In this document: one piece after another, positions 7,662-26,139 of the stretch
How the letters are laid out: each line of letters begins with the position of its first letter
How positions within the stretch are numbered: the stretch's first letter is position 1
DNA from: Opitutales bacterium
GTDB lineage: Bacteria; Verrucomicrobiota; Verrucomicrobiia; Opitutales; UBA953
Length of the DNA: 29,813 nt
Assembly (NCBI GenBank): GCA_964201505.1
Contig: CAXNEN010000001.1
Location: forward strand, 1-29,813
Direction of reading: 5' to 3'
The notes under the pieces: model-generated
The model's database searches: none
What the model was told of the DNA's origin: nothing
What the model saw: the letters and a program-made list of their open reading frames with translations, nothing else
Translations under genes and position numbers: made by a program

Positions 7662-7677
7662 GGAGAGCTACGTTATC

Positions 7678-9997: not shown

Positions 9998-10046
9998 CCC
10001 AAATACCGCGCTCAAAAAAACCGGAAACCGGAAAGCAAGAAGTTAC

Positions 10047-10072
10047 CCCAGCCAATATTCCGGTTCCCCTTT
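10047..10072 (+). repeat. Conserved intergenic C-motif, copy 0 (shortened)
   Basis: CCCAGCCAATATTCCGGTTCCCCTTT, a variant with one heptamer core; the complementary AACCGGAAACCGGAAA lies at 10019-10034. Confidence 0.7.
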
Positions 10073-10089
10073 AATCTCCTAAATCTTCT

Positions 10090-10527
10090 ATGCGTATCGC
10101 CATCACCTCCGGCTATTTCGACCCGATGCATCGAGGCCATCTCGAGCTCCTAGACCTCTCCCGCACCCAAGGCGACGCCCTTTGGGTCATCGTCAATACC
10201 GACGCCCAAGCTGCCTTGAAGAAGGGCAAGGCCTTCATCGATCAGGATACTCGCCTGGCGGTGACCTCCGCGCTGCGCGTCGTCGACCGTGCCGTGCTCT
10301 CGGTCGACACGGACGGCTCAGTCTGCGCCACGCTCGACTGGCTCATCGGCGAGGCCAAGGCCCAAGGCCATGAGGCCATCTTCTGCAAAGGCGGCGATCG
10401 CCACGCCGGCAACATCCCCGAGATGACGGTGCTCAATAAGCATGGTGCGAAGCTCATCGACGGCTTGGGCGCCAAGATTGACAGCAGTTCCCGTATTATC
10501 GCCCAAGCTAAAAAGCCTTCCGCTTGA
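10090..10527 (+). CDS. Cytidylyltransferase-like nucleotidyltransferase (TagD/RfaE-II/RibL type)
   Basis: SGYFDPMHRGH (HxGH motif), VIVNTD, LKKGK, FCKGGDR, KIDSSSRI. Confidence 0.85.
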   Translation: MRIAITSGYFDPMHRGHLELLDLSRTQGDALWVIVNTDAQAALKKGKAFIDQDTRLAVTSALRVVDRAVLSVDTDGSVCATLDWLIGEAKAQGHEAIFCKGGDRHAGNIPEMTVLNKHGAKLIDGLGAKIDSSSRIIAQAKKPSA

Positions 10528-10559
10528 ACGAAAACCTTTCCTGACTCATCACCTATCAT

Positions 10560-11621
10560 ATGAAAAAACGCGCGCTCATCACGGGTATCACGGGCCAAGA
10601 CGGTTCGTACCTCGCCGAATTCCTCCTCGCCAAGGGCTATGAGGTTCACGGCATCATCCGCCGCTCCTCCTCCTTCAACACGTCGCGTATCGAGCACCTC
10701 TACATGGAGGACCTCGTGCGCGATATCCACACGAAGAAGATTCAGCTCCACTACGGCGACCTCGGCGACGCGACGGGCCTGATCCGCCTGATCGGCGACA
10801 TCCAGCCAGATGAGATCTACAACCTTGGCGCAATGTCCCACGTGAAGGTGTCTTTCGACATCCCAGAATATACCGCTGACACGGACGGCCTCGGTACGCT
10901 TCGCCTCCTCGAGGCGATTCGCATTCTGAAGATGGAGAAGAAGGTCCGCATCTACCAGGCCTCGACCTCCGAACTCTACGGCAAGGTCGTCGAAGTGCCG
11001 CAGTCCGAGACGACACCCTTCTACCCGCGCAGCCCTTACGGTGTCGCCAAAATCTACGCCTACTGGATCACCCGCAACTACCGCGAGGCCTACGGCATGT
11101 TCGCCTCCAACGGGATCCTCTTCAATCACGAGTCTGAGCGCCGCGGCGAGACGTTCGTCACCCGCAAGATTTCCCTCGCGGTCGCTAATATCATCCACGG
11201 CCGCCAGGACTGCCTCTTCCTCGGTAACCTTTCCTCTCAGCGTGACTGGGGCTACGCTCCCGACTTCGTGCAGTGCATGTGGCTCATCCTGCAGCACAAG
11301 CAGCCGGACGACTTCGTTATCGCGACGGGTAAGATGTACACGGTCCGCGAATTCTGCACCCACGCTTTTCGCCATGCCGGCATCGAACTCGTCTGGCAGG
11401 GCACGGGCGCCGACGAGAAGGGCGTTGACTGCAAGACGGGCAAGACGCTCGTCGCCGTCGACCCGCGCTACTTCCGCCCGACCGAGGTCGAGCAGCTGCT
11501 CGGCAACCCGGCCAAGGCCGTCCGCGAGCTGGGCTGGAATCCGCAGCAGACCTCCTTCGAACAGCTGGTCCAGAAGATGGTCGACCATGACTTGAAGTTG
11601 GTCGCCCACGAAAACCGCTGA
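10560..11621 (+). CDS. gmd: GDP-mannose 4,6-dehydratase
   Basis: [74 protein letters not shown]. Confidence 0.98.
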
Positions 11622-12562
11622 TGGGCCGCACTGCAAAAATCTACGTCGCCGGCCACCGCGGGATGGTCGGCTCCGCCATCGTCCGCGCGCTCCGCGCCGC
11701 TGGCCATACGGCTATCGTCACACGTTCGTCCGCCGAGCTCGACCTTCGCGACGGCGCCGCGACCCGCGCGTTCCTCGACGCGGAGAAGCCGGACGCCGTC
11801 GTCATGGCCGCTGCGCGCGTCGGCGGCATCAAGGCCAACTCGACCGAGCCGTACGATTTCCTTTACGATAATCTGGCGATGGCCGCTAACGTCATCGACG
11901 GCTCCCGCCGCGCCGGCGTCCGCAAGCTACTCTTCCTCGGCTCGAGCTGCATCTACCCCAAGCTAGCCCCGCAGCCGATCCGCGAGGACTCCCTGCTCAC
12001 GGGCCCGCTCGAGGTCACCAACGAAGCCTACGCGGTTGCGAAGATTGCCGGCATCAAGCTCTGCGATCACGCGCGCGCCCAGTATGGCTGCGACTTCATC
12101 AGTGCGATGCCCTGCAATCTCTACGGTACGGGCGATAACTTCTCGCTGGAGAATTCACACGTGTTGCCTGCCCTCATCCGTAAGATGCATGAGGCTAAGC
12201 TCCGAGGTGACGCCGCGCTCCGCCTCTGGGGTACGGGCACGCCGTTCCGCGAATTCCTACACGCTGACGATCTTGCGGAGGCCTGCGTTCTCCTCCTTGA
12301 GCGCTACTCCCAAGCGGGACATATCAACGTCGGCTCCGGCGAAGAACTCACCATCCGCCAGCTCGCAGAATTAATCGCGCGCGAAGTCAGCTTCACCGGA
12401 CGCTTAGAATTCGACCCAACGATGCCCGACGGCACCCCACGCAAGCTGATGGACATCTCGCGTATTCGCGCGCTCGGCTGGAAGCCACGTATCGCGCTCA
12501 AGGAAGGCATCCGCGGTGCCTACGCTTGGTATCTTGCCCATTCCGCCGAAGCGCGGAAGTAA
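11621..12562 (+). CDS. fcl: GDP-L-fucose synthase
   Basis: YVAGHRGMVGSA, AARVGGIKAN, LFLGSSCIYPK, TNEAYAVAKIAG, MPCNLYG, SHVLPAL, WGTGTPFREFLH, PDGTPRKL; coupled to gmd. Confidence 0.97.
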   Translation: MGRTAKIYVAGHRGMVGSAIVRALRAAGHTAIVTRSSAELDLRDGAATRAFLDAEKPDAVVMAAARVGGIKANSTEPYDFLYDNLAMAANVIDGSRRAGVRKLLFLGSSCIYPKLAPQPIREDSLLTGPLEVTNEAYAVAKIAGIKLCDHARAQYGCDFISAMPCNLYGTGDNFSLENSHVLPALIRKMHEAKLRGDAALRLWGTGTPFREFLHADDLAEACVLLLERYSQAGHINVGSGEELTIRQLAELIAREVSFTGRLEFDPTMPDGTPRKLMDISRIRALGWKPRIALKEGIRGAYAWYLAHSAEARK

Positions 12563-12573
12563 GAGTAGCGTTA

Positions 12574-12606
12574 GTTGACCCGTTGACCAGCTGACCCGTT
12601 GACCAG
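12574..12606 (+). repeat. Octamer tandem array X (GTTGACCM x4)
   Basis: gttgaccc gttgacca gctgaccc gttgacca; inverted partner ctggtcaa cttgtcaa at about 12835-12851. Confidence 0.85.
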
Positions 12607-12616
12607 ATGAAAGCTA

Positions 12617-12764
12617 TTTCAGGTCTCAGGTCTCGGCCCTCAGGTCTCTGGTACGGGTTATCAGGTACAGGTGCGGGTGCAGGGGTAAAATTCAGATCCC
12701 GAACTTGTACCCGAACCTGGTCACCTGAACCCGGCACCCGACGGCTGAGACCCGAGACCTGAAA
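12617..12764 (+). repeat. 148-bp hairpin element B, copy 1 (MITE-like)
   Basis: Terminal inverted repeats TTTCAGGTCTCAGGTCTCGGCC / GGCTGAGACCCGAGACCTGAAA (20 of 22 complementary); near-identical copies at 18916 and 25896. Confidence 0.85.
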
Positions 12765-12779
12765 ATGTGTTCTGCCCCG

Positions 12780-12810
12780 CCAATCATCCGGTCTCCGGTT
12801 CCCCTTTGAG
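12780..12810 (+). repeat. Conserved intergenic C-motif, copy 1
   Basis: CCAATCATCCGGTCTCCGGTTCCCCTTTGAG. Confidence 0.9.
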
Positions 12811-12866
12811 CCAGTCCGTTGTCTTCCTTGTCCACTGGTCAACTTGTCAACCGGCCAGCTAGATTG

Positions 12867-12912
12867 CCCCCTTGTCCACGTGCCCACGTGCCCCCTTGCC
12901 CCCTGAACTAAA
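12867..12912 (+). repeat. Octamer leader array Y abutting the kdsB start
   Basis: cccccttg tccacgtg cccacgtg cccccttg ccccctga actaaa ATG. Confidence 0.85.
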
Positions 12913-13647
12913 ATGCCCTCCGTCACTCTCTGTATTCCCGCCCGCATTGCCTCCACGCGTTTGCCCCGCAAGGTCCTGCTCGATCTCGGCGGTAAGCCGG
13001 TCGTGCAGCATGTCTGGGAACGCGCCAAGCAGGTCCGCCAAGCGGATCGCGTCGTGTTGCTCACGGATTCGGAAGAAGTCGCAGCCGTTGCGCGTGGCTT
13101 CGGTGCAGAGGTCTTGATGACTGACCCAGCCTGTCCTTCAGGTACGGCCCGCATGGCCAGCGTCATCGACCATCTGCCTGGCGACTTCTTCCTCAACGTC
13201 CAAGGCGATGAGCCGTTCATCCAGCCGGAGTTACTCGATGGGCTCATCACGCGCTGGAAGGAGACGAAGTGCCCGTTGGTCACCGCGGTTTCAAAAATCC
13301 ATGCGACCGAACGCCTACTTGCGACGAGCGTCGTGAAGGTCGTCCGCGCTGAGAACGGTGAAGCAATCTACTTCTCGCGTAGCCCGATCCCGCACCTCCG
13401 CGGCGTCGATCCGTCCGAATGGGTCAAGCGTCGCGACTATTGGGTTCATATCGGTGTCTATGGTTATGACCGCGCGACGCTCGCCGGCTACGCCCAGCTA
13501 AAGCCGACTGAGCTCGAGTCTACCGAATCGCTCGAGCAGCTTCGCTTCCTCGCCCACGGCCTCACCTTCCAGACGGTCGTCACGGATTATCACCCGGTCG
13601 CCATCGATACGCCTGAAGACCTCGAAGCCGCCCGGAAGATGATGTGA
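12913..13647 (+). CDS. kdsB: 3-deoxy-manno-octulosonate cytidylyltransferase (CMP-Kdo synthetase)
   Basis: IPARIASTRLPRKVL, PSGTARM, NVQGDEPF, VKVV, AIYFSRSPIP, HIGVYGY, ESLEQLRFL, IDTPEDL. Confidence 0.95.
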   Translation: MPSVTLCIPARIASTRLPRKVLLDLGGKPVVQHVWERAKQVRQADRVVLLTDSEEVAAVARGFGAEVLMTDPACPSGTARMASVIDHLPGDFFLNVQGDEPFIQPELLDGLITRWKETKCPLVTAVSKIHATERLLATSVVKVVRAENGEAIYFSRSPIPHLRGVDPSEWVKRRDYWVHIGVYGYDRATLAGYAQLKPTELESTESLEQLRFLAHGLTFQTVVTDYHPVAIDTPEDLEAARKMM

Positions 13648-13667
13648 CGCGCCGAAGGCGCGGCACA

Positions 13668-13934
13668 AGAGGCCCAGAGGCTCGGTTGACCAGAAGATGT
13701 AATGTGAGTTGACCCGTTGACCAGCTGGTCAGTTGACAAGAGAGACAACCTCTCAAGGGGAGACCGGAAACCGGAAATTTAGCTTCGGTTATATGTCCCC
13801 CACCAATCATCCGGTCTCCGGTTTCCCTTGGAGCTAACCCCGTGCCTTCCTTGCCCACTGGTCAACTTGTCAACCTGCCAGCTAGTGTGCTTCTGAGCCT
13901 CCAAGCCTCTCGCCCTCAAGCCCTCCAGCCCTCC
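13668..13934 (+). repeat. Nested inverted-repeat spacer between kdsB and kdsD (Z, X, anti-C, C, D/X', Z')
   Basis: gaggccca gaggctcg; gttgaccc gttgacca...gttgacaa; aaggggagaccggaaaccggaaa (13755-13777); C-motif 13803-13833; ctggtcaa cttgtcaa; gagcctcc aagcctct cgccctca agccctcc agccctcc. Confidence 0.85.
13803..13833 (+). repeat. Conserved intergenic C-motif, copy 2
   Basis: CCAATCATCCGGTCTCCGGTTTCCCTTGGAG. Confidence 0.88.
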
Positions 13935-13954
13935 ACTCTCCTCATCCCACTCCC

Positions 13955-14929
13955 ATGTCCACTCCCCTGAACTCCGCCCGTGCTCTCCTCCAGGCTGAAG
14001 CTGCCGCGCTCGCCGAACTCGCCACGCGGCTCGACGGCTCCTTTACGCAAGCCGTCGACCTCATCGCCGGGCACTCCGGCAAGGTCGTGCTCTGCGGCGT
14101 CGGCAAGTCTGGTCTCATCGGGCAGAAGATTGCCGCGACGCTGTGCAGCACGGGCACGCCCGCGATTTTCCTCCACGCCGGTGACGCGGTGCACGGCGAC
14201 CTCGGCATCCTTCAGCCCGGCGATCCGGTGGTGGTGATTTCTCGCTCTGGCACCACCGCCGAACTGGTCCGCCTGATCCCAGTGCTGCGCTCCTTCAAGT
14301 CCCCCATCATCGCCATTGTCGGCAACACGCAGTCGCCTTTGGCGACGCAATCCGACGTGGTCCTCGATATCGGCGCCCGCCCCGAAGCCGATCCGCTCGG
14401 CTTGGTGCCAACCACGAGTGCACTCCTGACCCTCGCCCTCGGCGACGCGCTCGCGGCGGCCCTCATGACGAAGCGCGGCTTCGGCCCCGCCGACTTTGCG
14501 CGAATCCACCCAGCCGGGCAGCTGGGTCGTAACCTGTCGCTCACCGTGGGCGAGGCGCTGCAGCCGCTCGAACGGTGTGCGTGCGCCCAGCCGGGCGATT
14601 CGCTCCGTGATACGGTCATCGCGATGACCCGTCATCCCCATGGCGCCGCCTGCGTGCTTGCCGCTGACGGGACGCTTGCCGGTCTCATCACGGACGGCGA
14701 TCTCCGGCGCGCGCTCAGCCGCGGGGTCGATATCAACGCCGCCCGGGCCGCCGACATCATGACAGTCAATCCCGTGCGCGCTCATGCCCCCATGTCCCTC
14801 GGCGAGGCGGCGCGCATCATGGAGGACCGCCCTTCGCAGATTTCCGTACTACCAGTCACCGACGCTGCGTCCAACCGCTGTCTCGGGCTCATTCGCATCC
14901 ATGATATTTATCAGGCCGGGATTGTTTGA
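13955..14929 (+). CDS. kdsD: Arabinose-5-phosphate isomerase (KdsD/KpsF/GutQ; SIS + CBS pair)
   Basis: GVGKSGLIGQKIAATLCSTGTPA, AVHGDLG, SRSGTTAEL, PTTS, HPAGQLG, GLITDGDLRR. Confidence 0.93.
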   Translation: MSTPLNSARALLQAEAAALAELATRLDGSFTQAVDLIAGHSGKVVLCGVGKSGLIGQKIAATLCSTGTPAIFLHAGDAVHGDLGILQPGDPVVVISRSGTTAELVRLIPVLRSFKSPIIAIVGNTQSPLATQSDVVLDIGARPEADPLGLVPTTSALLTLALGDALAAALMTKRGFGPADFARIHPAGQLGRNLSLTVGEALQPLERCACAQPGDSLRDTVIAMTRHPHGAACVLAADGTLAGLITDGDLRRALSRGVDINAARAADIMTVNPVRAHAPMSLGEAARIMEDRPSQISVLPVTDAASNRCLGLIRIHDIYQAGIV

Positions 14930-14945
14930 GCTGCCACTGTGTTGG

Positions 14946-15068
14946 GTAGGGACGTGATTGCCATCACGTCCGTTCGCTTGAAGCCGCTGGAGGCTGATTA
15001 ATTCGGCTAAGGCCCGACGACTTTACGACCTCGGTTTCGAACGGCGGCGATAGCAATCGCCGCCCTAC
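14946..15068. repeat. GTAG-REP doublet (REPIN/BIME-like), 123 bp, copy 1
   Basis: GTAG-GGACGTGAT-TGCC-ATCACGTCC-GTTCGC, 60-bp spacer, inverted CGAAC-GGCGGCGAT-AGCA-ATCGCCGCC-CTAC. Confidence 0.88.
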
Positions 15069-15076
15069 CCAAGACA

Positions 15077-15104
15077 CCCAGCCAATCATCCGGTCTCCCC
15101 TTGG
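15077..15104 (+). repeat. Conserved intergenic C-motif, copy 3 (one heptamer deleted)
   Basis: CCCAGCCAATCATCCGGTCTCCCCTTGG. Confidence 0.8.
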
Positions 15105-15120
15105 TTGCCATCTTTCTTCC

Positions 15121-15154
15121 GCCACCTGCCACCTGAGGCCGCCACCTGCCACCC
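15121..15154 (+). repeat. Heptamer array W (GCCACCT) upstream of the ligase-like gene
   Basis: gccacct gccacct gaggcc gccacct gccaccc. Confidence 0.75.
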
Positions 15155-15186
15155 GAAGCGTTTCAAGCCCTCCTGTCCTCCCTTAA

Positions 15187-16854: not shown

Positions 16855-16856
16855 CC

Positions 16857-18872
16857 TTGCGGCAGCTTATCCAGCATCTGGGCTCGGGTCACACCGAGCT
16901 CCTTGCCGTCCCCGCCCCGGGGCCGCGCAGCGGCCGCCTGCTCGTCCGCGCGACGCGCTCGCTGGTCTCCCTCGGCACCGAACGGATGCTGGTCGAGTTC
17001 GGCCGCGGCGGCTGGCTAAGCAAAGCCCGTCAGCAGCCGGAAAAATTCCGCGCGGTGCTTGCGAAGGTCCGCGCTGAAGGCCTCTTCGCTACCGTCGCTG
17101 CGGTTCGCAGCAAGCTCGCCCAGCCTATCCCGCTTGGCTACTGCCACGTCGGCCAAGTCCTCGATGCGGGCGACGTCCCCGGCTTCGCTGGCGGCGACCG
17201 CGTGGTCTCCAATGCTCCACACGCTGAAGTAGTCTCGGCCTCGCCCGCCTTTGCGGCGCGCATCCCGGCGGCGGTCTCCGACGAGCAGGCCAGTTTCACG
17301 CCGCTTGCCGCCGTCGCGCTCCAAGGGCTCCGCCTGCTCGCTGTCCAACCGGGTGAGACGGTTGTGGTGATGGGGCTCGGCCTTCTCGGCCAGCTTGCCG
17401 TCCGTCTGCTCCGTGCCCGCGGAGTCCATGTCGTCGGCATTGATCCTGATTCCGCGAAGTGCGCCACGGCTGCCTTGGCTGGCGCGGTCATCTGGTCACC
17501 CCCCGCTCCACTTCCGGCGATTTTGGCCGCCGGCGCCGCCGGGGTACTCATCACGGCCAGTACTTCCTCCGACGAACCAGTTAACCTGGCCGCCCGTCTC
17601 TGCCGTCGCCGCGGCCGCGTGGTGCTCGTGGGCGTCACGGGCCTCACGCTCAATCGAGCGGACTTCTACCAGAACGAGGTTTCCTTTCAGGTCTCGCGCT
17701 CCTACGGCTCCGCCGATCCGGCCGATCGTTCTTCGGCCCGCGCCAATTTCGACGAGGTCCTCGCGCTCCTAGCGTCCGGCGCGCTCGATGTCGCCCCCTT
17801 ACTGACGTCACGTCATACGTTCGATGAGGCGCCGAAGATCTATGATGACCTGCGTCGGCCCGGCGCCTACGGACTGCTCATCGAGTACGCCGTCTCGAAC
17901 GAATCCCTCGTGCGCACTTTACCTGGCTTAGATTGGGATAGCCGGACCACCGGCGGGGTCGGCGTCATCGGCTGCGGGAACTTCGCCGCCCGCGTCCTCG
18001 TGCCAGAGCTCCGTCGCCAAGGCGTATCGCCTTCGGTCTTCGCTTCGGCTAACGGCCTTTCGGCCAAGCTTCTCGCCGGAGCGGCCGCTGCCTTAACGAC
18101 CGATACTTTCGCGCTACTTGACCACCCGGGGGTCTCCACCGTCTTCATCGCGACCCGACATGATGAGCATGGTGCACTTGCCCGGTCGGCGCTGGTCTCC
18201 GGTAAATCTAGCTGGGTCGAAAAACCGCTCGCGCTCACCGAAGTGGACCTCGCTGCGACCATGGCGGTCGCGCGTTCTTCCTCCGGCCTCCTCGCCGTCG
18301 GCTTCAACCGTCGCTTCGCCCCGCTCGCGCTCCGTCTCCGCGCCGCGCTCGCCGCCCGCCAGGGCGCTCGCCGCTTCACCGTCGACGTGAACGCCGGTCG
18401 TCTGCCTCCTGACCATTGGACGCTCGACCCGAAGCAGGGCGGGGGACGAATCGTCGGCGAGGCCTGTCACTTCGTGGACCTGCTGCGCTTTCTCTCCGGC
18501 AGCGCCATCGTCTCCGTCCGCGCCATGTCGCGCGACGTCGATGGTCAGGACGGCGGCTGCTTCGAACTGAGTTTCGCCAACGCCGATCTCGCCGTTCTCA
18601 ACTACCGTACCGACCAACCGGCTCATCTGCCCAAGGAGCGCATCGCGGTCGAAGGCGAAGGCTGGTCGGCCGAGATCGACAACTGGAAATCTTTGCGGTC
18701 GCAGAACCTCCCCGGCGCCTCTGCATTGCCTGCCTGGCTCGGCGGCCCCGCCCGCGGTAAAGGCCATGCCGAAGCCCTCGCCGCTTTCCTTGTCGGTACG
18801 TCCGTCCCCCTCGCCGAGATCGAAGAAGTCTCTCGCTGGAGTATTCGGATGCAGGGGATGGTGCGAAGCTAG
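16857..18872 (+). CDS. Bi-domain oxidoreductase (Zn-ADH-like + Gfo/Idh/MocA)
   Basis: TTG start 2 nt after the upstream stop; SLVSLGTERML, PLGY, GLGLLGQ, QVSRSYG in the N-domain; VIGCGNFA, ATRHDEH, WVEKPLA, VGFNRRFAP, GGRIVGEACHFVD in the C-domain. Confidence 0.9.
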   Translation: MRQLIQHLGSGHTELLAVPAPGPRSGRLLVRATRSLVSLGTERMLVEFGRGGWLSKARQQPEKFRAVLAKVRAEGLFATVAAVRSKLAQPIPLGYCHVGQVLDAGDVPGFAGGDRVVSNAPHAEVVSASPAFAARIPAAVSDEQASFTPLAAVALQGLRLLAVQPGETVVVMGLGLLGQLAVRLLRARGVHVVGIDPDSAKCATAALAGAVIWSPPAPLPAILAAGAAGVLITASTSSDEPVNLAARLCRRRGRVVLVGVTGLTLNRADFYQNEVSFQVSRSYGSADPADRSSARANFDEVLALLASGALDVAPLLTSRHTFDEAPKIYDDLRRPGAYGLLIEYAVSNESLVRTLPGLDWDSRTTGGVGVIGCGNFAARVLVPELRRQGVSPSVFASANGLSAKLLAGAAAALTTDTFALLDHPGVSTVFIATRHDEHGALARSALVSGKSSWVEKPLALTEVDLAATMAVARSSSGLLAVGFNRRFAPLALRLRAALAARQGARRFTVDVNAGRLPPDHWTLDPKQGGGRIVGEACHFVDLLRFLSGSAIVSVRAMSRDVDGQDGGCFELSFANADLAVLNYRTDQPAHLPKERIAVEGEGWSAEIDNWKSLRSQNLPGASALPAWLGGPARGKGHAEALAAFLVGTSVPLAEIEEVSRWSIRMQGMVRS

Positions 18873-18903
18873 AGGCCCGGAGGCCCAGAGGCCCCGTTGA
18901 CCA
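18872..18903 (+). repeat. Octamer array Z starting within the stop codon
   Basis: TA-gaggcccg gaggccca gaggcccc gttgacca. Confidence 0.8.
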
Positions 18904-18915
18904 GAGGAAATATAG

Positions 18916-19063
18916 TTTCGGGTCCCAGGTCTCGGCCCCCAGGTCTCAGGTACGGGTTATCAGGTGCAGGTGCGGGTGCGGGGGTAAAATTCAGATCCTG
19001 AACCTGTACCCGAACCTGAACCTCTGAACCTAGCTCCCGACGGCCGAGACCCGAGACCTGAAA
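18916..19063 (+). repeat. 148-bp hairpin element B, copy 2
   Basis: Aligns base for base with copy 1 (TTTCGGGTCCCAGGTCTCGGCC...GGCCGAGACCCGAGACCTGAAA). Confidence 0.85.
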
Positions 19064-19075
19064 AGTATGTCCCCA

Positions 19076-19106
19076 CCCAGTCATCTGATCTCCGGTCCCC
19101 CTTTAG
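19076..19106 (+). repeat. Conserved intergenic C-motif, copy 4 (diverged)
   Basis: CCCAGTCATCTGATCTCCGGTCCCCCTTTAG, in the same position relative to element B and module D as in the fcl-kdsB gap. Confidence 0.7.
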
Positions 19107-19213
19107 TTACGCCGTCTGCCTCCCTTGCCCACTAATCAACTTGTCAACCGGCCAGCTAGTGTTCCCCTCCGGCCCTCGTGCCCTCCCTTCAGCCCCTCCA
19201 TTCCTCGATTCCC

Positions 19214-20437
19214 ATGCCCTCCCTCTGCGTCCTCGGCCTCGGCTACATTGGCCTTCCGACCGCGTCCATCTTCGCGACGAAGGGACGCCGCGTCCTCGGT
19301 GTCGACGTCTCGGCGTCGGTCGTTGAGACGATCAACAGCGGCCGCATTCATATCCAGGAGCCGGACCTCGACGTGCTTGTGCGCGCCGCGGTGCAATCGG
19401 GCAACTTGAAGGCCGCCACCACGCCAGCCGCCGCCGATGTCTTTATCCTCGCGGTCCCGACGCCTTTCTTCGCCTCGGCCGATGGCGCCCGTGTGCCGGA
19501 CCTGTCGTTCGTCGAGGCCGCGACCCGCTCGATCGCTCCTTTCGTCGCCGCCGGCAACCTGATCGTCCTCGAGTCCACTTCACCCGTCGGCACGACCGAG
19601 AAGGTGAAAGGCTGGCTCGAGGCCGAACTTGCGAAACTTGGTCGTAAGGCCGACGGCCTACTCTACGCCCATTGCCCTGAGCGCATCCTGCCCGGCCAGA
19701 TGCTCAAGGAACTCGTCTCCAATGATCGCATCTGCGGAGGCCTCACGCCAGCCGCCGCCGAGAAGGCCCGCGACCTCTACGCGACGTTCTGTACGGCGCA
19801 GATCTTCCTGACCGACGCCCGCACGGCCGAATTAGCGAAGCTGACCGAGAACGCTTACCGCGACGTCAACATCGCCTTTGCCAACGAGCTCTCGCTGATC
19901 TGCGATAAGCTCTCGATCGATGTCTGGGAACTCATCCGCTTGGCCAACCGCCATCCGCGCGTGAAGATTCTCCAGCCAGGCCCCGGGGTCGGCGGACACT
20001 GTATCGCGGTCGACCCCTGGTTCATCGTCGACGCCGCTCCGGCCGAAGCCCGCCTTTTGCGCACCGCCCGCGAGGTCAACGACTCGAAGCCGCATCACGT
20101 CATCGCCCAGGTCCGTGCCGCGGCGGGCAAGGACGCCGTCGTCGCCTGCCTTGGCCTCGCCTTCAAGGCGAACGTCGACGACCTCCGCGAATCTCCCGCC
20201 GTCGAGATTGCCGCGCATCTCGCGGACGCCGGTCTGAAGGTACTCGCCGTCGAGCCGCACGTCACCGCGCTACCGAAGGCGCTGCAGGGCAGGGCGGAAC
20301 TCGTTTCGCTCGCCGACGCGCTGGCCCGCGCCTCCGTCGTTGTCCTCCTTGTCGATCACCGCGCCTTCGCCGGTCTCACCCTTGCCCAGCTCTCCGGCAA
20401 GAAATTGATTGATACGCGGGGAGTGGTTCGGGCCTGA
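19214..20437 (+). CDS. wecC: UDP-N-acetyl-D-mannosamine dehydrogenase
   Basis: VLGLGYIGLPTA, IHIQEPDL, AVPTPF, ESTSPVGTT, CPERILPG, AELAKLTENAYRDVNIAFANEL, GPGVGGHCIAVDPWF, GLAFKANVDDLRESP. ATG 19214 preferred over GTG 19178. Confidence 0.92.
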   Translation: MPSLCVLGLGYIGLPTASIFATKGRRVLGVDVSASVVETINSGRIHIQEPDLDVLVRAAVQSGNLKAATTPAAADVFILAVPTPFFASADGARVPDLSFVEAATRSIAPFVAAGNLIVLESTSPVGTTEKVKGWLEAELAKLGRKADGLLYAHCPERILPGQMLKELVSNDRICGGLTPAAAEKARDLYATFCTAQIFLTDARTAELAKLTENAYRDVNIAFANELSLICDKLSIDVWELIRLANRHPRVKILQPGPGVGGHCIAVDPWFIVDAAPAEARLLRTAREVNDSKPHHVIAQVRAAAGKDAVVACLGLAFKANVDDLRESPAVEIAAHLADAGLKVLAVEPHVTALPKALQGRAELVSLADALARASVVVLLVDHRAFAGLTLAQLSGKKLIDTRGVVRA

Positions 20438-20498
20438 AGGCCCGACCATGCCGAGTTGACCCGTTGACCCGTTGGCAAGTTGACAAGGAATGCAATGG

Positions 20499-20522
20499 GT
20501 AGGGTCGGGACCGCGTCACGAC
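20499..20522 (+). repeat. Extra degenerate GTAG-REP in tandem upstream of doublet copy 2
   Basis: GTAG-G-GTCGGGAC-CGC-GTCACGAC (8-bp stem, one mismatch). Confidence 0.6.
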
Positions 20523-20535
20523 AGTGCTGCCTTGG

Positions 20536-20658
20536 GTAGGGACGTGATTGCCATCACGTCCGTTCGCCAAGCGACTCTGTCGCCTGTGCGACTTAGCTAA
20601 GACCCGACAACTTCGCGCCCTCGGTCCCGAACGGCGGCGATGGCAATCGCCGCCCTAC
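20536..20658. repeat. GTAG-REP doublet, 123 bp, copy 2
   Basis: Same arms as copy 1 (right loop GGCA), 60-bp homologous spacer. Confidence 0.88.
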
Positions 20659-20665
20659 CAAAAGC

Positions 20666-20706
20666 CCCAGCCAATCATCCGGTCTCCGGTTCCCCTTTGA
20701 GTTAAG
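20666..20706 (+). repeat. Conserved intergenic C-motif, copy 5
   Basis: CCCAGCCAATCATCCGGTCTCCGGTTCCCCTTTGAGTTAAG, 41 of 41 identical to 24241-24281. Confidence 0.92.
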
Positions 20707-20735
20707 CCCACTTGTCCCCTTGCCCACGTGCCAGC

Positions 20736-22682
20736 GTGTCCCCTCGTCCAGTGCTCCTTCCTCTCCTCCATCTCCTCGGACCGCGTTGGCTCGCCCGTCG
20801 CGTTTGCTGGGCGTGCGAGCGCAGGCTGGGAGTTTGGGAATGGCACTCGCCGATGCGGCCATGGAAGGATTTCGCAAAAGAGTTCTACCCTGCCGCCTGG
20901 CGTAAGTCCGCGCCGCGCCTGCCGATCGCGAACCTCGATCGGGCCCACCTCGCGCCGCCGCTCGAAGCCTGGTCCGTCGAATCCGGCTGCGCTCCGACCG
21001 CGGAAGCGGCCGCCTTCGCCCGCGGTTGCGCGCGCGTTTTCTCCCATCGCTTGGTCGAAGTCGGTCGCCCCGATCGCTGGACGTGCAGCGTCCTCACCGG
21101 GCATTCGACTGATCCTTACAAGCACTGGTCCCGGCTCCGTGACACGGACTCCGACGATATCAAGGGCGTTTGGGAGCTCTCCCGCTTCTCGTGGGCCTAC
21201 GCTCTCGTTCGTGCTTGGCTGCGCGATGGGGACGAACGTCATGCCGAACTTTTCTGGGCGACGCTCGAGGATTGGATGGCGCGTAATCCGCCCAACCGCG
21301 GCCCAAACTGGATGTGCGGGCAGGAAGCAGCCTTTCGCCTAATCGCCGTCACCTTCGCCGTTCAGGCCTTCCGCGATCACCCGTCTTCGACCGATGCGCG
21401 TCTGACGCTTGCGGCCCGCTTGGCCGACGCCACGGGTCGCCGCATCCGCTTCCACCTAGATTACGCGCTTTCGCAGCAGAACAACCACGGCATCGCCGAG
21501 GCTATTGGGCTACAGACCGCCGACGTGTTCTGGGCGGCGCCCTATTCTCCAACGCGGCGATACTTTGCAGGGGTGAGTGAGCTCACGGAGCAGTGCCGCG
21601 AGCTTATCGGCCCCGACGGCGGCTTCAGCCAGCATTCCTCAAACTACCATCGGCTGTTGTTGCAATTACTCACTTGGTCGGAAGTAACCGCGCGCTCCGT
21701 CGGTGATACCTTGCCCGAAGTAGTCCGAGACAAGGCCGCCGTCGCGACCGACTTCCTTGCCACGTTGATGGAGGCGGACGGTACCGTCCCGCGCTTCGGT
21801 GCCGATGACGGCGCAAACCTCTTGCCGTTGAGCGGATGCGGGTTCGAAGACTTCCGCCCAGCGATCGGTGCCGCCCTCGCGCTCTTCAAAGGTGAACGCC
21901 TTGCGGCGGGTCCGTGGGATGAGGCAGCCCTCCTCCTGCTGGGGCCTGTCTCCGCGAGCGCCAACCCCGCATTGCGCCCCCCCGCCGAGTTCCGTGATGC
22001 CGGCGTCTTCCAGCTCCGCCATCCGCGTGGGACGCTCTTCTTCCGGGCACCGACGGAATTCCGTACGCGCCCCTCCCATGCCGATCAGCTGCATGTCTCG
22101 CTCCGTTGGGATGGAGAGTGGATTACCGAAGATCCGGGTACCTATTCTTATAACGCCCCCGGAGGATGGGATGGTTTCGCCGGATCCCGCTTCCATAATC
22201 TTGTCTCGGTCGGGGAGTTCGACTCCATGCGTCGAATCGGCCGCTTCCTCTGGCTTCCCTGGGTCGGTTGCGAGTTGCGCTGGCAGTTTGATGGCGTCGC
22301 TGCCTCGCATCTCGGCTTCCCGGGCTTCAAGTCCCAGCGGCGCGTCGTCAAGGTCGCGAATGGCTTTGTGATCATCGATCGACTAACAGGCCTCCTGAAG
22401 CAAGACGGTCGCTTCACCTTACGTTGGCACGGGCGCACCCGCGAAGGCCTCGAGCAATTGACCGTCGCCTGTTCCGCGCCCTCGACGGAAGAATTTGTCA
22501 CCGCTTTACCCGACGCGGGGGAAGGGTGGCACTCGACGCACTATGGATCAAAAGACCCCTCCTGGTGTCGCCGCATCTCCGCCCTGGGCCATGACGTTAC
22601 TTTCGTCACCGCGCTCGGCTGTTCTCTGCGCCTTGAAGCCCACAGTTTTTTTGTCGACGGCGAAGAGTATCCGCTCGAGTGA
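20736..22682 (+). CDS. Heparinase II/III family protein (polysaccharide lyase-like)
   Basis: DIKGVWELSRFSW, NPPNRGPNWMCGQE, SQQNNH.IAE, DGGFSQHSSNYHR, PRFGADDG, HADQLH, DPGTYSY, HNLV. GTG 20736 chosen; the exact start is uncertain (20712-20751). Confidence 0.85.
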   Translation: MSPRPVLLPLLHLLGPRWLARRVCWACERRLGVWEWHSPMRPWKDFAKEFYPAAWRKSAPRLPIANLDRAHLAPPLEAWSVESGCAPTAEAAAFARGCARVFSHRLVEVGRPDRWTCSVLTGHSTDPYKHWSRLRDTDSDDIKGVWELSRFSWAYALVRAWLRDGDERHAELFWATLEDWMARNPPNRGPNWMCGQEAAFRLIAVTFAVQAFRDHPSSTDARLTLAARLADATGRRIRFHLDYALSQQNNHGIAEAIGLQTADVFWAAPYSPTRRYFAGVSELTEQCRELIGPDGGFSQHSSNYHRLLLQLLTWSEVTARSVGDTLPEVVRDKAAVATDFLATLMEADGTVPRFGADDGANLLPLSGCGFEDFRPAIGAALALFKGERLAAGPWDEAALLLLGPVSASANPALRPPAEFRDAGVFQLRHPRGTLFFRAPTEFRTRPSHADQLHVSLRWDGEWITEDPGTYSYNAPGGWDGFAGSRFHNLVSVGEFDSMRRIGRFLWLPWVGCELRWQFDGVAASHLGFPGFKSQRRVVKVANGFVIIDRLTGLLKQDGRFTLRWHGRTREGLEQLTVACSAPSTEEFVTALPDAGEGWHSTHYGSKDPSWCRRISALGHDVTFVTALGCSLRLEAHSFFVDGEEYPLE

Positions 22683-22698
22683 AGACACGAGCGATCGA

Positions 22699-22726
22699 GA
22701 GTATGGAGTATTGAGTATGGAGTATC
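22699..22726 (+). repeat. Heptamer array V (GAGTATK x4) with inverted partner at 22837-22856
   Basis: gagtatg gagtatt gagtatg gagtatc ... tatactc atactcc atactc. Confidence 0.85.
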
Positions 22727-22745
22727 GGGGGAGTGCTTGCCTTGG

Positions 22746-22807
22746 GTAGGGATGCGATGACATCGCATCCGTCAGCCACCAAGAAGGACGCGATAGTGAT
22801 CACGTCC
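22746..22807. repeat. Degenerate short REP doublet
   Basis: GTAG-GGATGCGAT-GAC-ATCGCATCC, 15-bp gap, GGACGCGAT-AGTG-ATCACGTCC lacking the CTAC foot. Confidence 0.7.
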
Positions 22808-22870
22808 CGGCCTTAATACGGTCTCCTGCCTCTTCCTATACTCATACTCCATACTCGACACTCTCGTATT

Positions 22871-22915
22871 TCCGCTTGTCCCCGTGCCCCCGTGCCAGCT
22901 TGCCCCCTAAACTAA
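22871..22915 (+). repeat. Octamer leader array Y abutting the wecB start
   Basis: tccgcttg tccccgtg cccccgtg ccagcttg ccccctaa actaa ATG. Confidence 0.85.
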
Positions 22916-24067
22916 ATGCCCTCCCTCGCCCTCATCGTCGGTACGCGCCCCGAGTGCATTAAGCTCGCGCCGGTGTTCGCCGAGTTGCGTCGTGCCGGCA
23001 AGGTGCGTCCGCTGCTCGTCTCGACCGGCCAGCATCGCGAACTGCTCGATCAGGCGTTGGGCTCTTTCGGCCTCAAGCCCGATGTCGACCTCGGCCTGAT
23101 GCAGCCTGGCCAATCGTTGCCGGAGCTTTCGAGCCGCGTGCTGACTAGCATGTCCGCCTGGCTCGCCGACGCGAAGCCATCGGCTATCCTTGTACAGGGC
23201 GACACTACCACGGTGTTGGGCTCGGCGATGGCTGCCTTCTACGCGGGCATTCCGGTCGGACACGTCGAAGCCGGCTTACGCACGGATGACCTACGCTCGC
23301 CGTTCCCGGAAGAGATGAACCGCCGCGTGACCTCTACGCTCGCTCGCTGGCATTTCTGCCCGACCGAACTGGCCAAGGCCAATCTCCTGCGCGAAGGCAT
23401 TCCCGCGGCCCACTGCCACGTCACCGGCAATACGGTCATCGACGCTCTGCTCTCCACCCGTGCGCGGATTGGCGGCATCGAGGCCGCCGCCGTCGGCGCC
23501 CGCCTCGGTATCGCCCCCGCGTTCGTCGCCTCGCATCTCGCGGCGCCGAAATCCCGCTGGATCTTAGTCACCGGACATCGTCGCGAGTCGTTCGGCCCCG
23601 GTTTCGAGAATCTGTGCCGTGGCATCCGTCAGCTGGTTGATGCCCACCCCGATCTCGGCGTTGTCTACCCCGTCCATCTCAACCCACAGGTCCAGGAGCC
23701 GGTCCGTCGCCTTCTCGGTGGTCATCCGCGTATCGCGCTCGCCGCTCCGGCGGCCTACGAGGATTTCATCTGGCTGATGGATCGTTCGGCTTTCGTATTG
23801 ACCGATTCTGGCGGCGTGCAGGAAGAAGCCCCTTCGCTCGGCAAGCCCGTGCTCGTCATGCGCGACAACACGGAACGCCCCGAAGGACTGGCCGCTGGTA
23901 CAAGTGAGCTCGTCGGTACGGACGCCGCCCGTATTTTCGCCGCCGCGACACGCTTACTTACCGACCCCGCCGAATACGCTCGTCGGTCCCAGCTTCGTAA
24001 TCCTTACGGTGACGGCACCGCGGCTGTGAAGATTGCGCGGCTGATGGAGTCGGAATTGCACGATTAG
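22916..24067 (+). CDS. wecB: UDP-N-acetylglucosamine 2-epimerase (non-hydrolysing)
   Basis: VGTRPECIKLAP, STGQHRE, VQGDTTT, HVEAGLRT, SPFPEEMNR, TGNTVIDAL, TGHRRE, YPVHLNP, TDSGGVQEEAPSLGKPVLVMRDNTERPE, PYGDG. Confidence 0.96.
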   Translation: MPSLALIVGTRPECIKLAPVFAELRRAGKVRPLLVSTGQHRELLDQALGSFGLKPDVDLGLMQPGQSLPELSSRVLTSMSAWLADAKPSAILVQGDTTTVLGSAMAAFYAGIPVGHVEAGLRTDDLRSPFPEEMNRRVTSTLARWHFCPTELAKANLLREGIPAAHCHVTGNTVIDALLSTRARIGGIEAAAVGARLGIAPAFVASHLAAPKSRWILVTGHRRESFGPGFENLCRGIRQLVDAHPDLGVVYPVHLNPQVQEPVRRLLGGHPRIALAAPAAYEDFIWLMDRSAFVLTDSGGVQEEAPSLGKPVLVMRDNTERPEGLAAGTSELVGTDAARIFAAATRLLTDPAEYARRSQLRNPYGDGTAAVKIARLMESELHD

Positions 24068-24098
24068 TTGACCCGTTGAAAAGTTGGCAAGTTGACAA
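24067..24098 (+). repeat. Octamer array X starting within the wecB stop codon
   Basis: TA-gttgaccc gttgaaaa gttggcaa gttgacaa; a matching array lies at about 20455-20486. Confidence 0.8.
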
Positions 24099-24110
24099 GG
24101 GATGCAATGG

Positions 24111-24233
24111 GTAGGGACGTGATTGCCATCACGTCCGTTCGCCAAGAGACTTGGTTGTCTGTGCGACTTAGCTAAGACACAATAACTTCGCGACTTAGGG
24201 CTCGAACGGCGGCGATGGCAATCGCCGCCCTAC
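24111..24233. repeat. GTAG-REP doublet, 123 bp, copy 3
   Basis: Arms identical to copy 2 between the GTAG and CTAC feet; 60-bp spacer homologous to copy 2. Confidence 0.88.
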
Positions 24234-24240
24234 CCATAAA

Positions 24241-24281
24241 CCCAGCCAATCATCCGGTCTCCGGTTCCCCTTTGAGTTAAG
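24241..24281 (+). repeat. Conserved intergenic C-motif, copy 6
   Basis: Identical to 20666-20706. Confidence 0.92.
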
Positions 24282-24290
24282 TTGGTTTGC

Positions 24291-24335
24291 TCCCCTTGCC
24301 CCCGTGCCCACGTGCCAGCTTGTCCCCTAAACTAA
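24291..24335 (+). repeat. Octamer leader array Y abutting the GT4 start
   Basis: tccccttg cccccgtg cccacgtg ccagcttg tcccctaa actaa TTG. Confidence 0.85.
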
Positions 24336-25553
24336 TTGCGCCTCCTTTACTTCCATCAACATTTCGCGACCCCACAGGGCGCAAGCGGCACGCGTTCCTA
24401 TGAGTTTGCCCGGGCACTGATTGCCCGCGGACATCAGGTCACGATGATTTGCGGTGCGCATGCGCAGAGCGGCCTGACGCTCCCGTATGACGAAGCCCGC
24501 GGCTGGCATCGCGGCGAAGTCGATGGAATCGATGTTATCTCGTTGCCGCTCGCCTATTCGAACCGCGATTCGTTGTTTCGCCGCGGCTGGACCTTCCTTC
24601 GCTTCGCCCTGCGTTCCGTCCGCCTCGCGCTCGAGCTCGATTGCGATCTGGTCTTCGCGACCTCAACGCCGATCACGGCCGTCATCCCTGGCCTCGCCGC
24701 TAAATGGCTGCGCGGGAAGCCCTTCGTCTTCGAGGTACGCGATCTCTGGCCAGAACTCCCTCGTGCGCTCGGCCTACGTAATCCATTCGTCCTTGGCGGC
24801 ATGTCGCTCCTGGAATTCTTCGGCTACCGTTCGGCCGATGCGTGCATCGGGCTCTCGCCCGGAATCGTTGAGGGCATCCGGGCCCGCTCCGACGAGCGTC
24901 TGCCGGTCGCGATGATTCCCAATGGCTCCGACCTCGAGCTCTTTCATCCGTCCAAGCGCACTCGCCTGACCTTGCCCGGCCTCGGACCCGATGACTTCGT
25001 CGCTGGCTTCACCGGCGCCCACGGCGTCGCCAATGGGCTCGACGCCTTACTCGACGTTGCTGCGGAGCTCAGGCGTCGCAGCGACACGCGTGTAAAGCTC
25101 GCCTTCATTGGCGACGGCAAGGAGAAGGAACGCCTCGCAGCCCGCGCCACCGAACTCGGCCTCACGAACTGCCTATTCTTCCCGCCAGTTCCCAAGACCG
25201 AGCTCGGTGCGATCACCGCCTCCCTCGATTGCGGGTTGATGGTACTTAAGGACGTCCCGGCGTTTTACCGGGGCACATCGCCGAATAAGTTCTTCGACTA
25301 TCTCGCCGCCGGGATTCCGGTCATGAACAACTACCCGGGCTGGCTGGCTGGCCTAATCACTGAGCACCAATGCGGCATCGTGGTTCCCCCCAGCAATCCG
25401 TCCGCCTTCGCTGACGCGCTACAGTCTCTCGCGGCTGATTCGGCCGGGCGTCGCGCCATGGGTACGGCCGCTCGCCACCTGGCAGAGAGGGAGTTCGCTC
25501 GCCCACGCCTCGCCGCAGAATTTGTACTTACGCTCGAAACCCACGCACTCTGA
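24336..25553 (+). CDS. Glycosyltransferase family 4 (WbuB-like)
   Basis: TTG start; YFHQHF..P.GASGTRSYE, FATSTP, FVFEVRDLWPE, IPNGSD, GAHGVANGL, IGDGKEK, SPNKFFDYLAAGIPV. Confidence 0.9.
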   Translation: MRLLYFHQHFATPQGASGTRSYEFARALIARGHQVTMICGAHAQSGLTLPYDEARGWHRGEVDGIDVISLPLAYSNRDSLFRRGWTFLRFALRSVRLALELDCDLVFATSTPITAVIPGLAAKWLRGKPFVFEVRDLWPELPRALGLRNPFVLGGMSLLEFFGYRSADACIGLSPGIVEGIRARSDERLPVAMIPNGSDLELFHPSKRTRLTLPGLGPDDFVAGFTGAHGVANGLDALLDVAAELRRRSDTRVKLAFIGDGKEKERLAARATELGLTNCLFFPPVPKTELGAITASLDCGLMVLKDVPAFYRGTSPNKFFDYLAAGIPVMNNYPGWLAGLITEHQCGIVVPPSNPSAFADALQSLAADSAGRRAMGTAARHLAEREFARPRLAAEFVLTLETHAL

Positions 25554-25555
25554 CC

Positions 25556-25852
25556 ATGCTCACCCGCGAACAAGCCCTTGCCCTCGTGCTTCGACGCCTC
25601 GCCCTGCTGGGCAAGGAACTCGGCAAGCCGGCGCTCGAACAGGCCGATGAGCAGACACGGCTCTTCGGCGAAGCCGCCGCCTTGGACAGTATCGGCCTCG
25701 TGACGCTCATCGCCGACCTCGAGGAGGATATTCGCGTCGCTACGGGCAAGACGGTCTTTCTCGCTGACGAAAAAGCCATGAGCCGCCTCACTTCTCCATT
25801 TCGCCGCACCGGTCTGCTGGCGGAGTATGTGGTTGAGATGGTCAACAAGTAA
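25556..25852 (+). CDS. Acyl carrier protein-like
   Basis: LFGEAAALDSIGLV carries the phosphopantetheine-attachment DS motif; 98 aa; next to an SDR and an AMP ligase. Confidence 0.8.
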   Translation: MLTREQALALVLRRLALLGKELGKPALEQADEQTRLFGEAAALDSIGLVTLIADLEEDIRVATGKTVFLADEKAMSRLTSPFRRTGLLAEYVVEMVNK

Positions 25853-25895
25853 GAGGCCCGGAGGCCCAGAGGCTCTGTTAATCGGAGCGATGCAG

Positions 25896-26042
25896 TATCG
25901 GGTCACAGGTCTCGGCCCTCAGGTCTCTGGTACGGGTTATCAGGTACAGGTGCGGGTACGGGGCAAAGTTCAGGTCCTGAACCTGTACCCGAACCTGAAC
26001 ACCTGAACCTGGCTCCCGACGGCCGAGACCCGAGACCCGAAA
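25896..26042 (+). repeat. 147-bp hairpin element B, copy 3
   Basis: TATCGGGTCACAGGTCTCGGCC...GGCCGAGACCCGAGACCCGAAA; bracketed by gaggcccg gaggccca gaggctct (25853-25876) and gagcctcc gagcctct (about 26050-26065). Confidence 0.85.
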
Positions 26043-26091
26043 ATACCCTGAGCCTCCGAGCCTCTGGTCAACTAAGCCTCTCATTAGTATC

Positions 26092-26139
26092 TCCCCTTGC
26101 CCACGTGCCCACGTGCCAGCTTGCCCCCTGAATAATACC
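26092..26139 (+). repeat. Octamer leader array Y abutting the SDR start
   Basis: tccccttg cccacgtg cccacgtg ccagcttg ccccctga ataatacc ATG. Confidence 0.85.

Follow-up and report, generated by a model that had tools for sequence, protein, structure and literature searches.

Repeat families with hairpin-forming potential in the gene junctions of a putative glycan operon from an Opitutales bacterium

The stretch of DNA analysed here (the window) is 29,813 nucleotides long and represents one whole contig (C1; CAXNEN010000001.1) of a metagenome-assembled genome (MAG; GCA_964201505.1) of an Opitutales bacterium, which comprises 1.6 Mb in 250 contigs and is 65% complete. It contains a long operon with nine large intergenic gaps, and the composition and origin of these gaps are the subject of this text. 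The names given to the operon genes in an earlier reading, made by a model from the letters and their open reading frames (ORFs; the sequence-only reading), were borne out by Pfam. The operon begins with a cytidylyltransferase-like gene, gmd, an fcl-like epimerase gene, kdsB, kdsD and a gene for an O-antigen-ligase-family protein. It continues with an ADH/GFO fusion, a wecC-like dehydrogenase, a heparinase II/III-like protein, wecB and a GT4 gene, and ends with a 98-aa ORF (ACP-like), an SDR gene, an AMP-binding enzyme and a Wzy-like protein. Its product is probably lipopolysaccharide (LPS) or O-antigen-type sugars. The comparisons below concern the window's own genome (G000), a 400-kb stretch of the relative G077 and the loci of further relatives, which are given L-numbers.

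The modules found in the gaps are tandem arrays of 7–8-nt units (among them the octamers X and Z and the heptamer V of the sequence-only reading), a C-rich octamer “leader”, doublets of repetitive extragenic palindromes (REPs), a C-motif and a B rod. All nine gaps had been described as modular; repeat finding, the program TRF and direct reading revealed shared modules in eight of them, and the same module library is indeed reused from junction to junction. Module matches between gaps are far beyond chance (BLAST E-values 1e-24 to 1e-49), and each of the eight repeat gaps matches 4–36 gaps on other contigs. These eight gaps fold into long rods with dG of −85 to −140 kcal/mol, and in most of them the final 20–70 nt ahead of the start codon are largely unpaired in the fold. 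The rods fold on both strands, the minus-strand folds being equally stable or more so. The ninth gap, before the cytidylyltransferase-like gene (9919–10089; this gap, the spacers and the lone REP below are given on the plus strand), is not a repeat cassette. It holds an ops-like 11-mer (9987–9997), an AACCGG(A) heptamer pair (10018–10034) and a weak C-like stretch (10047–10072) that was not detected by the C profile, and it has no BLAST match to any other gap.

In the fcl–kdsB spacer (12563–12912) an X octamer array (12574–12610) is followed by a B rod (12617–12765), a sense C-motif (12775–12810), a reverse-complement X array (12827–12851) and the C-rich octamer leader (12864–12912). The kdsB–kdsD spacer (13648–13954) starts with a small GC hairpin and Z and X arrays (13668–13741), has in its core an antisense (13752–13784) and a sense C-motif (13797–13833), which together form a hairpin, and closes with reverse-complement X and Z arrays (about 13857–13935) and a C-rich leader. 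Between kdsD and the ligase gene (14930–15186) lie a REP doublet (14938–15076), a truncated C-motif (15077–15102) and a GCCACCT heptamer array (15121–15153). The ADH/GFO–wecC spacer (18871–19177) contains a Z array beginning within the stop codon (18871–18894), a B rod (18916–19064), a C-motif (19071–19105), reverse-complement X units and a C-rich end. The wecC–heparinase-like spacer (20438–20752) is composed of an X array (20454–20487), a single REP-like unit (20496–20523), a REP doublet (20528–20665), a C-motif (20665–20701) and the octamer leader (20703–20752). In the heparinase-like–wecB spacer (22683–22915) a degenerate REP pair (22738–22808) lies between a GAGTATG heptamer array (22699–22725) and its complement (22838–22856), and the octamer leader (22867–22915) follows. 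The wecB–GT4 spacer (24066–24335) consists of an X array (24066–24099), a REP doublet (24103–24240), a C-motif (24241–24276) and the octamer leader (24288–24335), and that between the ACP-like ORF and the SDR gene (25852–26137) of a Z array (25852–25873), a B rod (25896–26044), reverse-complement Z units (26048–26080) and the octamer leader (26088–26137). Many parts of the proposed common order are missing in individual gaps. In the 1–9 kb part of the window, only one lone GGGTAGGG-tagged REP hairpin (7634–7665) was found, between convergent genes outside the operon, as had been claimed. It is also worth noticing that the listed starts of the heparinase-like gene (TTG, 20712) and of the SDR gene (GTG, 26113) fall within the octamer leader; alignments of the heparinase-like protein to relatives start at residue 2–26, and an ATG at 26138 follows the leader before the SDR gene. 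The true starts of both genes (ATG 26138 for SDR) probably lie downstream of the listed ones, and thus both spacers would be longer than listed.

The tandem arrays occur in the gaps as matched inverted pairs, and their unit sequences are diverse (GTTGACCM, GAGGCCCR, GGGGACAC/GTGGGCAC, CAGGTGG, GAGTATG, GTGCAAAR and others). Such 6–8-nt arrays in inverted pairs are found throughout the genome, and more than half of those with period 7 or 8 lie within the 8% of the genome that is intergenic. This abundance is taken from TRF counts; a strict counter of X, Z and leader units with a reversed-sequence control was uninformative, the X unit being nearly its own reverse after rotation. A gene-carrying form of these palindromes exists. 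The one PF05635 gene of the host genome, on contig C65, lies exactly between (CAGGTGG)n and its complement, and inverted arrays flank the PF05635 gene in 12 of the 13 loci tested (C65 and 11 of 12 relatives' loci), with inverted-repeat scores of 42–71 compared to at most 32 for shuffled flanks. Across the genus, PF05635 scores above the cut-off in 54 of 61 genomes, with up to seven copies each; to our knowledge, it is not a known transposase. The arms in the window match the arms of PF05635 cassettes at 82–94% in five of eight gaps. Both GAGTATG arms of the heparinase-like–wecB spacer are 94% identical to the arms enclosing the PF05635 gene in L168, and the GCCACCT array of the kdsD–ligase spacer shares 85–91% identity with each arm of the cassette on C65. 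The leader profile also matches cassette arms in eight PF05635 loci: in four cassettes the left arm in reverse and the right arm forward, and in four more one arm. In one relative (L018), the orthologous wecB–GT4 junction itself has GTGCAAAR arrays that enclose, in antisense to the operon, a 131-aa PF05635 gene (83 bits), and with this the suggestion that relatives might have a four-helix-bundle gene in the central slot proved right. The array-armed cassette with its gene is thus present in the host genome and in the genus, and the window gaps have the arms without the gene. Judged by these matches, the brackets in the window are gene-less versions of PF05635 cassettes, the cores of which hold REP doublets, B rods or C pairs. 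The profiles of the C-motif, the B rod and the REP doublet gave no match in PF05635 cassettes; these modules are therefore separate families. Two features of MITEs (miniature transposable elements with inverted repeats), the inverted arms and a gene-bearing relative, are present, and a target-site duplication, looked for at the three B copies and at the array arms, was not seen there.

The REP doublet, about 130 nt long, has three copies in the window (14938, 20528, 24103) in addition to the degenerate pair at 22738–22808. Its head, GGGTAGGG, is the most enriched intergenic 8-mer of the host genome, in which 303 GGTAGGG heads were counted, 198 of them followed by a predicted hairpin below −8 kcal/mol. 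The hairpins combine a GTAG head with a 7–9-bp stem and compensatory stem variants, as is characteristic of the GTAG superfamily of REPs. The doublets are head-to-head dimers with a conserved spacer, and of the 13 that were aligned, 11 have an A-type stem (ACGTGAT) first and a stem of another type (GCGGCGAT or GCGGTGAT) second. An asymmetric spacer core, GCTAAGACCCGAC, is conserved in all 13 (e.g., 20590–20610 and 24165–24185 in the window). Two REP types, alternating orientation and a conserved motif outside the palindromes are what defines bacterial interspersed mosaic elements (BIMEs). By comparison with the IHF site of E. coli BIME-1, the core may be a protein-binding site. In 400 kb of G077 the REP-doublet profile found no match, though other GGTAGGG REPs are present there. 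As to the REP-associated tyrosine transposase (RAYT) that the sequence-only reading proposed to look for in relatives, a REP-flanked RAYT-like ORF does exist: in L108 and L109, a 190-aa ORF has GGGTAGGG REP doublets on both sides and scores 27.8 bits with PF01797 (cut-off 23) and 73.7 bits with NF047646 (E=1e-20), the latter below its cut-off of 80. In the genus, 28 of 61 genomes have a PF01797 score above the cut-off. Another class of Y1-transposase-like ORFs, of about 310–330 aa, gives the strongest PF01797 matches (G008, G009, G023); it occurs also in genomes with no spacer match and is thus probably unrelated to the REPs.

The remaining modules are palindromic as well. The B rod (149 nt) has three copies (12617, 18916, 25896), which are 89–90% identical in gapped BLAST alignments and each palindromic in itself. 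The profile search found six sense copies of the C-motif in the window and one antisense copy (13752), and in the operons of 19 relatives 44 sense and 23 antisense copies. Most antisense copies in relatives form the left half of an antisense/sense pair around a core, which indicates that the C-motif is half of a palindrome with a 36-bp stem; single antisense copies also exist. A clean 184-nt rod of this paired type is present on contig C116.

None of these families is confined to the operon. The C-motif has 40 matches on 23 contigs of the host genome, the REP doublet is found on 27 contigs, and 49 of 109 gaps of 200–500 nt match another gap. For a single window spacer, 55 of the 61 genomes sampled in the genus gave matches, and the number of candidate sites in one genome reached more than 100. 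In the host genome, the modules adjoin genes for AlaRS, Dxs, acetolactate-synthase-like (IlvB-like) and thioredoxin-reductase-like (TrxB-like) proteins, FeoB, ApbE, DUF1501/DUF1552 proteins, gluconolactonases and dehydrogenases, and in the 400 kb of G077 they adjoin genes for TyrRS, a pseudouridine synthase and a sulfatase. They also lie in convergent gaps and in both orientations. These neighbours do not fit the purpose-built, glycan-specific architecture that had been proposed. The claim that asymmetric modules always face the direction of transcription describes the window (six sense C-motifs and one antisense partner; three of three REP doublets) but does not extend beyond the operon: the co-directional gaps there have six sense and eight antisense C-motifs, many further copies lie between convergent genes, and 11 REP doublets are in convergent gaps. 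The orientation of the bracketing arrays is uninformative: whichever strand of a palindrome is read, the G-rich arm comes first. The orientation is a bias rather than a lock, and its source could be replication-linked insertion into single strands or selection.

The same operon was compared in 19 related loci, in 18 of which the gene order is kept. In the divergent relatives L037, L038, L042 and L052 most junctions are 0–60 nt long and repeat-free, the fcl–kdsB junction being 88–136 nt in L037 and L038, while closer relatives have 120–840 nt at every junction. The same gene order with compact junctions shows that the operon can do without the cassettes. The compact operon is retained in at least one genome that does carry repeats (probably G003/L042), which argues that the operon was colonised in a subclade and not wherever the repeats exist; some members of the genus with small genomes (about 1.2–1.8 Mb) gave no spacer match. 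The content of a single junction turns over between species: six species have six different assemblies of the kdsB–kdsD junction, all composed from one common set of modules. Regular conservation at orthologous positions (82–98%) is confined to the leader, roughly the last 45 nt, and the leader is present at fcl–kdsB even in the 88-nt junction of a compact relative.

In the window, the 50-nt C-rich octamer leader abuts the start codons of five genes. This has to be seen against the background of the genome, where just 7% of genes have a Shine–Dalgarno (SD)-like motif ahead of them and the 20 nt leading up to the starts are rich in C and poor in G. C-rich, SD-less start regions throughout the genome account for the C-rich end of every spacer, and elsewhere the G-rich complement of the leader is found just after stop codons. 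Signals that would divide the operon into separate transcripts were not evident. A sigma-70 promoter scan gave no excess, and the TTGACA-like octamers were accordingly not accepted as promoters. Among intrinsic terminators, 8 terminator-like sites were found compared to 12.9 expected, none of them at the 3' end of a rod. An Rfam scan of the whole window (E<=1) returned two tRNAs and nothing else, so no known structured RNA lies at the spacers. On the sense strand of the rods G-U pairs are not in excess (44 vs 49; 64 vs 46), which places the palindromy at the level of DNA, as is typical of mobile palindromes. Three metatranscriptome runs, available as contigs that represent small parts of the region, cover e.g. 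the heparinase-like gene and end at the spacer edges or a short way into the spacers, and neither co-transcription nor processing can be read from them. The ops-like 11-mer, GCGGTAGCCTG, is located shortly before the first operon gene. Seven related loci, some of them from compact-junction relatives, have it without any change; among the seven are L037:570–580, L038:619–629, L040:4237–4247 and, on the minus strand, L122:9223–9233. Two more complete relatives have two NusG-family genes each. The 11-mer and the pairs of NusG-family genes suggest antitermination of the RfaH/LoaP type and one long transcript that reads through the rods.

We consider it likely that an originally compact operon was colonised by several repeat families, hairpin-forming and probably selfish, whose layered deposits are the spacers. 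The composition of the spacers, the distribution and turnover of the modules and their gene-carrying relatives were observed directly; what we infer is the mechanism of insertion and the effect at the RNA level. The first family would be the palindromes with tandem 7–8-nt arms (X, Z, V and the C-rich “leader”), MITE-like gene-less derivatives of cassettes in the loop of which lies the gene for PF05635, the “23S rRNA intervening-sequence protein”, a four-helix bundle. The second would be the GTAG-tagged, BIME-like REP doublets, presumably moved by a RAYT-type tyrosine transposase, and the third the C-motif, as half of its palindrome, and the B rod. New palindromes are proposed to nest inside or beside older ones, as a consequence of which each gap reads G-rich arm, core, C-rich arm. 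The shared module order claimed by the sequence-only reading is, for its larger part, accounted for by such nesting together with the C-rich SD-less leader. Since translation in this genome starts mostly without an SD sequence, the last 40–50 nt before a start codon would have to stay C-rich, G-poor and unpaired. The operon would be read as one long transcript, in which the rods form stable intercistronic hairpins that could block exonucleases or be cut by RNase III, as is the case for REP/BIME elements and rRNA intervening sequences; by this analogy, the probable role of the rods between cistrons is in stability or processing.

Several observations weigh against this explanation. Co-directional junctions with repeats are much more frequent in the operon than elsewhere, both in the host genome (8/13 vs 39/758, p=1e-7, odds ratio 29) and in G077 (7/14 vs 20/203, p=4e-4, odds ratio 9), although the two tests, made on orthologous loci, are not independent and repeats elsewhere may be hidden by the fragmentation of the assembly. 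Such enrichment would not be expected if selfish elements spread purely at random. In co-directional gaps the REP doublet, a truly asymmetric module, is found 16 times in sense and 3 times in antisense (p=0.004; 9 and 2 when the operon copies are left out), and all C-motifs in the window that stand singly are sense. Module pieces are 82–98% identical between species, compared to 55–72% at the third codon positions of flanking genes, which implies constraint, recent spread or homogenisation (concerted evolution) across the genus. Finally, a RAYT-like gene did not turn up in G000 (65% complete), the ORF of the relatives scores below the curated threshold of the RAYT family, and neither a transposition event nor a target-site duplication nor a site of RNA processing was observed. 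For the enrichment, the sense bias and the conservation of the leader, domestication is a conceivable alternative. In its full form, it assumes a host-selected junction system, in which each cassette ends one cistron with a protective or processable hairpin and starts the next with an SD-less leader, so that domesticated modules set the stability and translation of each gene. In addition to the three observations just named, this would agree with modules far better conserved than synonymous sites, with a 45–50-nt leader that is the best-conserved part of orthologous gaps and is present even in the compact relative's 88-nt junction, and with the ops-like 11-mer kept at the operon head in seven loci, which suggests one transcript through every hairpin. 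However, the same modules stand at unrelated genes, in convergent gaps and in antisense, relatives with mostly 0–60-nt junctions have the same operon, and the content of one junction varies between close species. There is also no RNA-strand-specific pairing signal and no promoter or terminator signal, and what has been called the “leader” is no more than the C-rich arm of the PF05635 cassettes, the G-rich complement of which follows stop codons elsewhere. A host-selected origin of the whole arrangement therefore appears unlikely.

A related proposal, which we hold to be still more doubtful, is that the array palindromes, with or without the PF05635 gene, are an mRNA-dwelling mobile counterpart of rRNA intervening sequences. 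RNase III would cut out the stem and convert a compact, translationally coupled operon into separately processed cistrons, each with a portable C-rich SD-less leader derived from the 3' arm of the element, and the host would have become dependent on this arrangement. If true, this would account for the enrichment, for the bias towards sense and for the leader being so strongly conserved. The sequence-only reading had also considered the spacers as portable homology, which promotes the shuffling, gain and loss of glycan genes by recombination at the junctions. Some observations hint at this. In L040 (7253–14882), where the ADH/GFO gene was not detected, kdsD and the ligase gene follow the heparinase-like gene instead of kdsB, and all breakpoints lie at repeat-carrying junctions. 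Eight relatives (L017, L031, L036, L037, L038, L042, L043 and L051) have an extra 1–1.6 kb, probably one gene, between the GT4 gene and the ACP-like ORF, and the window spacers at 20438 and 24068 are near-duplicates. On the other hand, 18 of 19 loci have one and the same gene order although their spacers turn over heavily, viable rearrangements must break between genes anyway, the GT4/ACP indel falls at a junction which in the window is a repeat-free gap of 2 nt (25553–25556), and wzy diverges strongly (about 50% identity) without rearrangement. Shuffling is thus rare at this locus, and promotion of it by the spacers is improbable. The least credible explanation, to which we give almost no weight, is an artefact of assembly or binning, in which repeats were collapsed or mis-joined; the MAG is fragmented, contigs of public runs break at the repeats and depth spikes there. 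Yet an independent assembly of contigs from a lake metagenome matches 12833–14971, including the gap 13648–13954 and its flanks, with no differences, and nineteen independent MAGs, one of them from long reads (L051, with gaps of similar length), show the same genes with spacers of similar size and kind. We therefore return to the colonisation of a compact operon by selfish repeats as the preferred explanation.

Among known systems, cyanobacterial STRR sequences are intergenic 7-nt arrays. Correia/NEMIS elements, ERIC sequences and mycobacterial interspersed repetitive units (MIRUs) are small in-operon repeats that form mRNA hairpins or have a fixed orientation and can alter the stability of flanking cistrons; MIRUs are direct repeats with coupled small ORFs, and Correia elements have defined terminal inverted repeats and a target-site duplication. 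The modules described here have no sequence relationship to Correia/NEMIS, ERIC or MIRU sequences, and a Correia-type target-site duplication was not seen. A new, purpose-built glycan junction system is not supported, and the statement that no named system has this grammar does not hold, for the closest analogues all have names: REP/BIME elements, inverted heptamer arrays and cassettes of the intervening-sequence (IVS) type with PF05635.

GTAG REPs have already been described in many bacteria, including Opitutus terrae (GTAG-17 to -20; PMC3733652). With the REP/REPIN/BIME–RAYT systems of E. coli, Pseudomonas, Stenotrophomonas and O. terrae, the doublets share hairpins about 30 nt in length whose GTAG head (GGGTAGGG in the present case) is unpaired, compensatory stems, head-to-head dimers with a conserved spacer of about 60 nt and two alternating types (Y and Z in BIMEs). 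They are likewise sited in co-directional and convergent gaps near 3' ends, and relatives have a REP-flanked RAYT-like gene. In contrast to these systems, the REPs are here one layer only, inside or beside array palindromes, C-motif palindromes and B rods, the incomplete host genome yielded no RAYT-like gene, and, unlike in REPINs, the two stems of a doublet differ too much to pair together. The arrays resemble the inverted heptamer arrays (GGGAATC) of Xanthomonas, which are described as tandem units, mostly intergenic and near the upstream stop codon, often in convergent pairs able to form stem-loops (Rehm et al., 2015; PMC4692102). In Beggiatoaceae, TAACTGA arrays are described in forward orientation directly before SD-less start codons (PMC4679880), and the octamer leader is alike in this respect. 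What differs is the coexistence of many unrelated units, which bracket other repeat families, and the link to PF05635; the passages that describe the arrays in these two papers (PMC4692102; PMC4679880) connect them with no gene-carrying form. The 23S rRNA intervening sequences that encode S23p, known from Coxiella burnetii (PMC4990558), Leptospira and Salmonella, are regarded as selfish, and RNase III cuts their stem out. In them, too, terminal inverted repeats form a long stem, and a PF05635 gene occupies its loop. The cassettes and gene-less derivatives described here, however, lie between protein-coding genes and not in rRNA, their stems are made of tandem short units, and excision from mRNA is hypothetical.

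The locus presents the small (about 2 Mb) genome of an abundant freshwater lineage that lets repeat families pile up inside an essential-looking operon, and it ties the poorly understood bacterial 7–8-nt inverted arrays to PF05635-gene cassettes, here in Verrucomicrobiota. As the same operon has compact junctions in some species and 230–350-nt spacers in others, it offers a natural comparison for the effects of intercistronic hairpins. For annotators it is a caution, since a regular spacer “grammar” can arise from nested palindromes alone. Outside the spacers, the two tRNA genes of the window lie at 55–125 on the minus strand and at 9184–9258 on the plus strand. The former overlaps the listed start of the ORF at 51–1439, and the true start of this ORF is thus probably further downstream. 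Within the operon, the fusion gene at 16857–18872 encodes a 671-aa protein in which a zinc-type alcohol dehydrogenase domain is joined to a GFO/IDH/MocA oxidoreductase, and it is kept in the operon across the genus.

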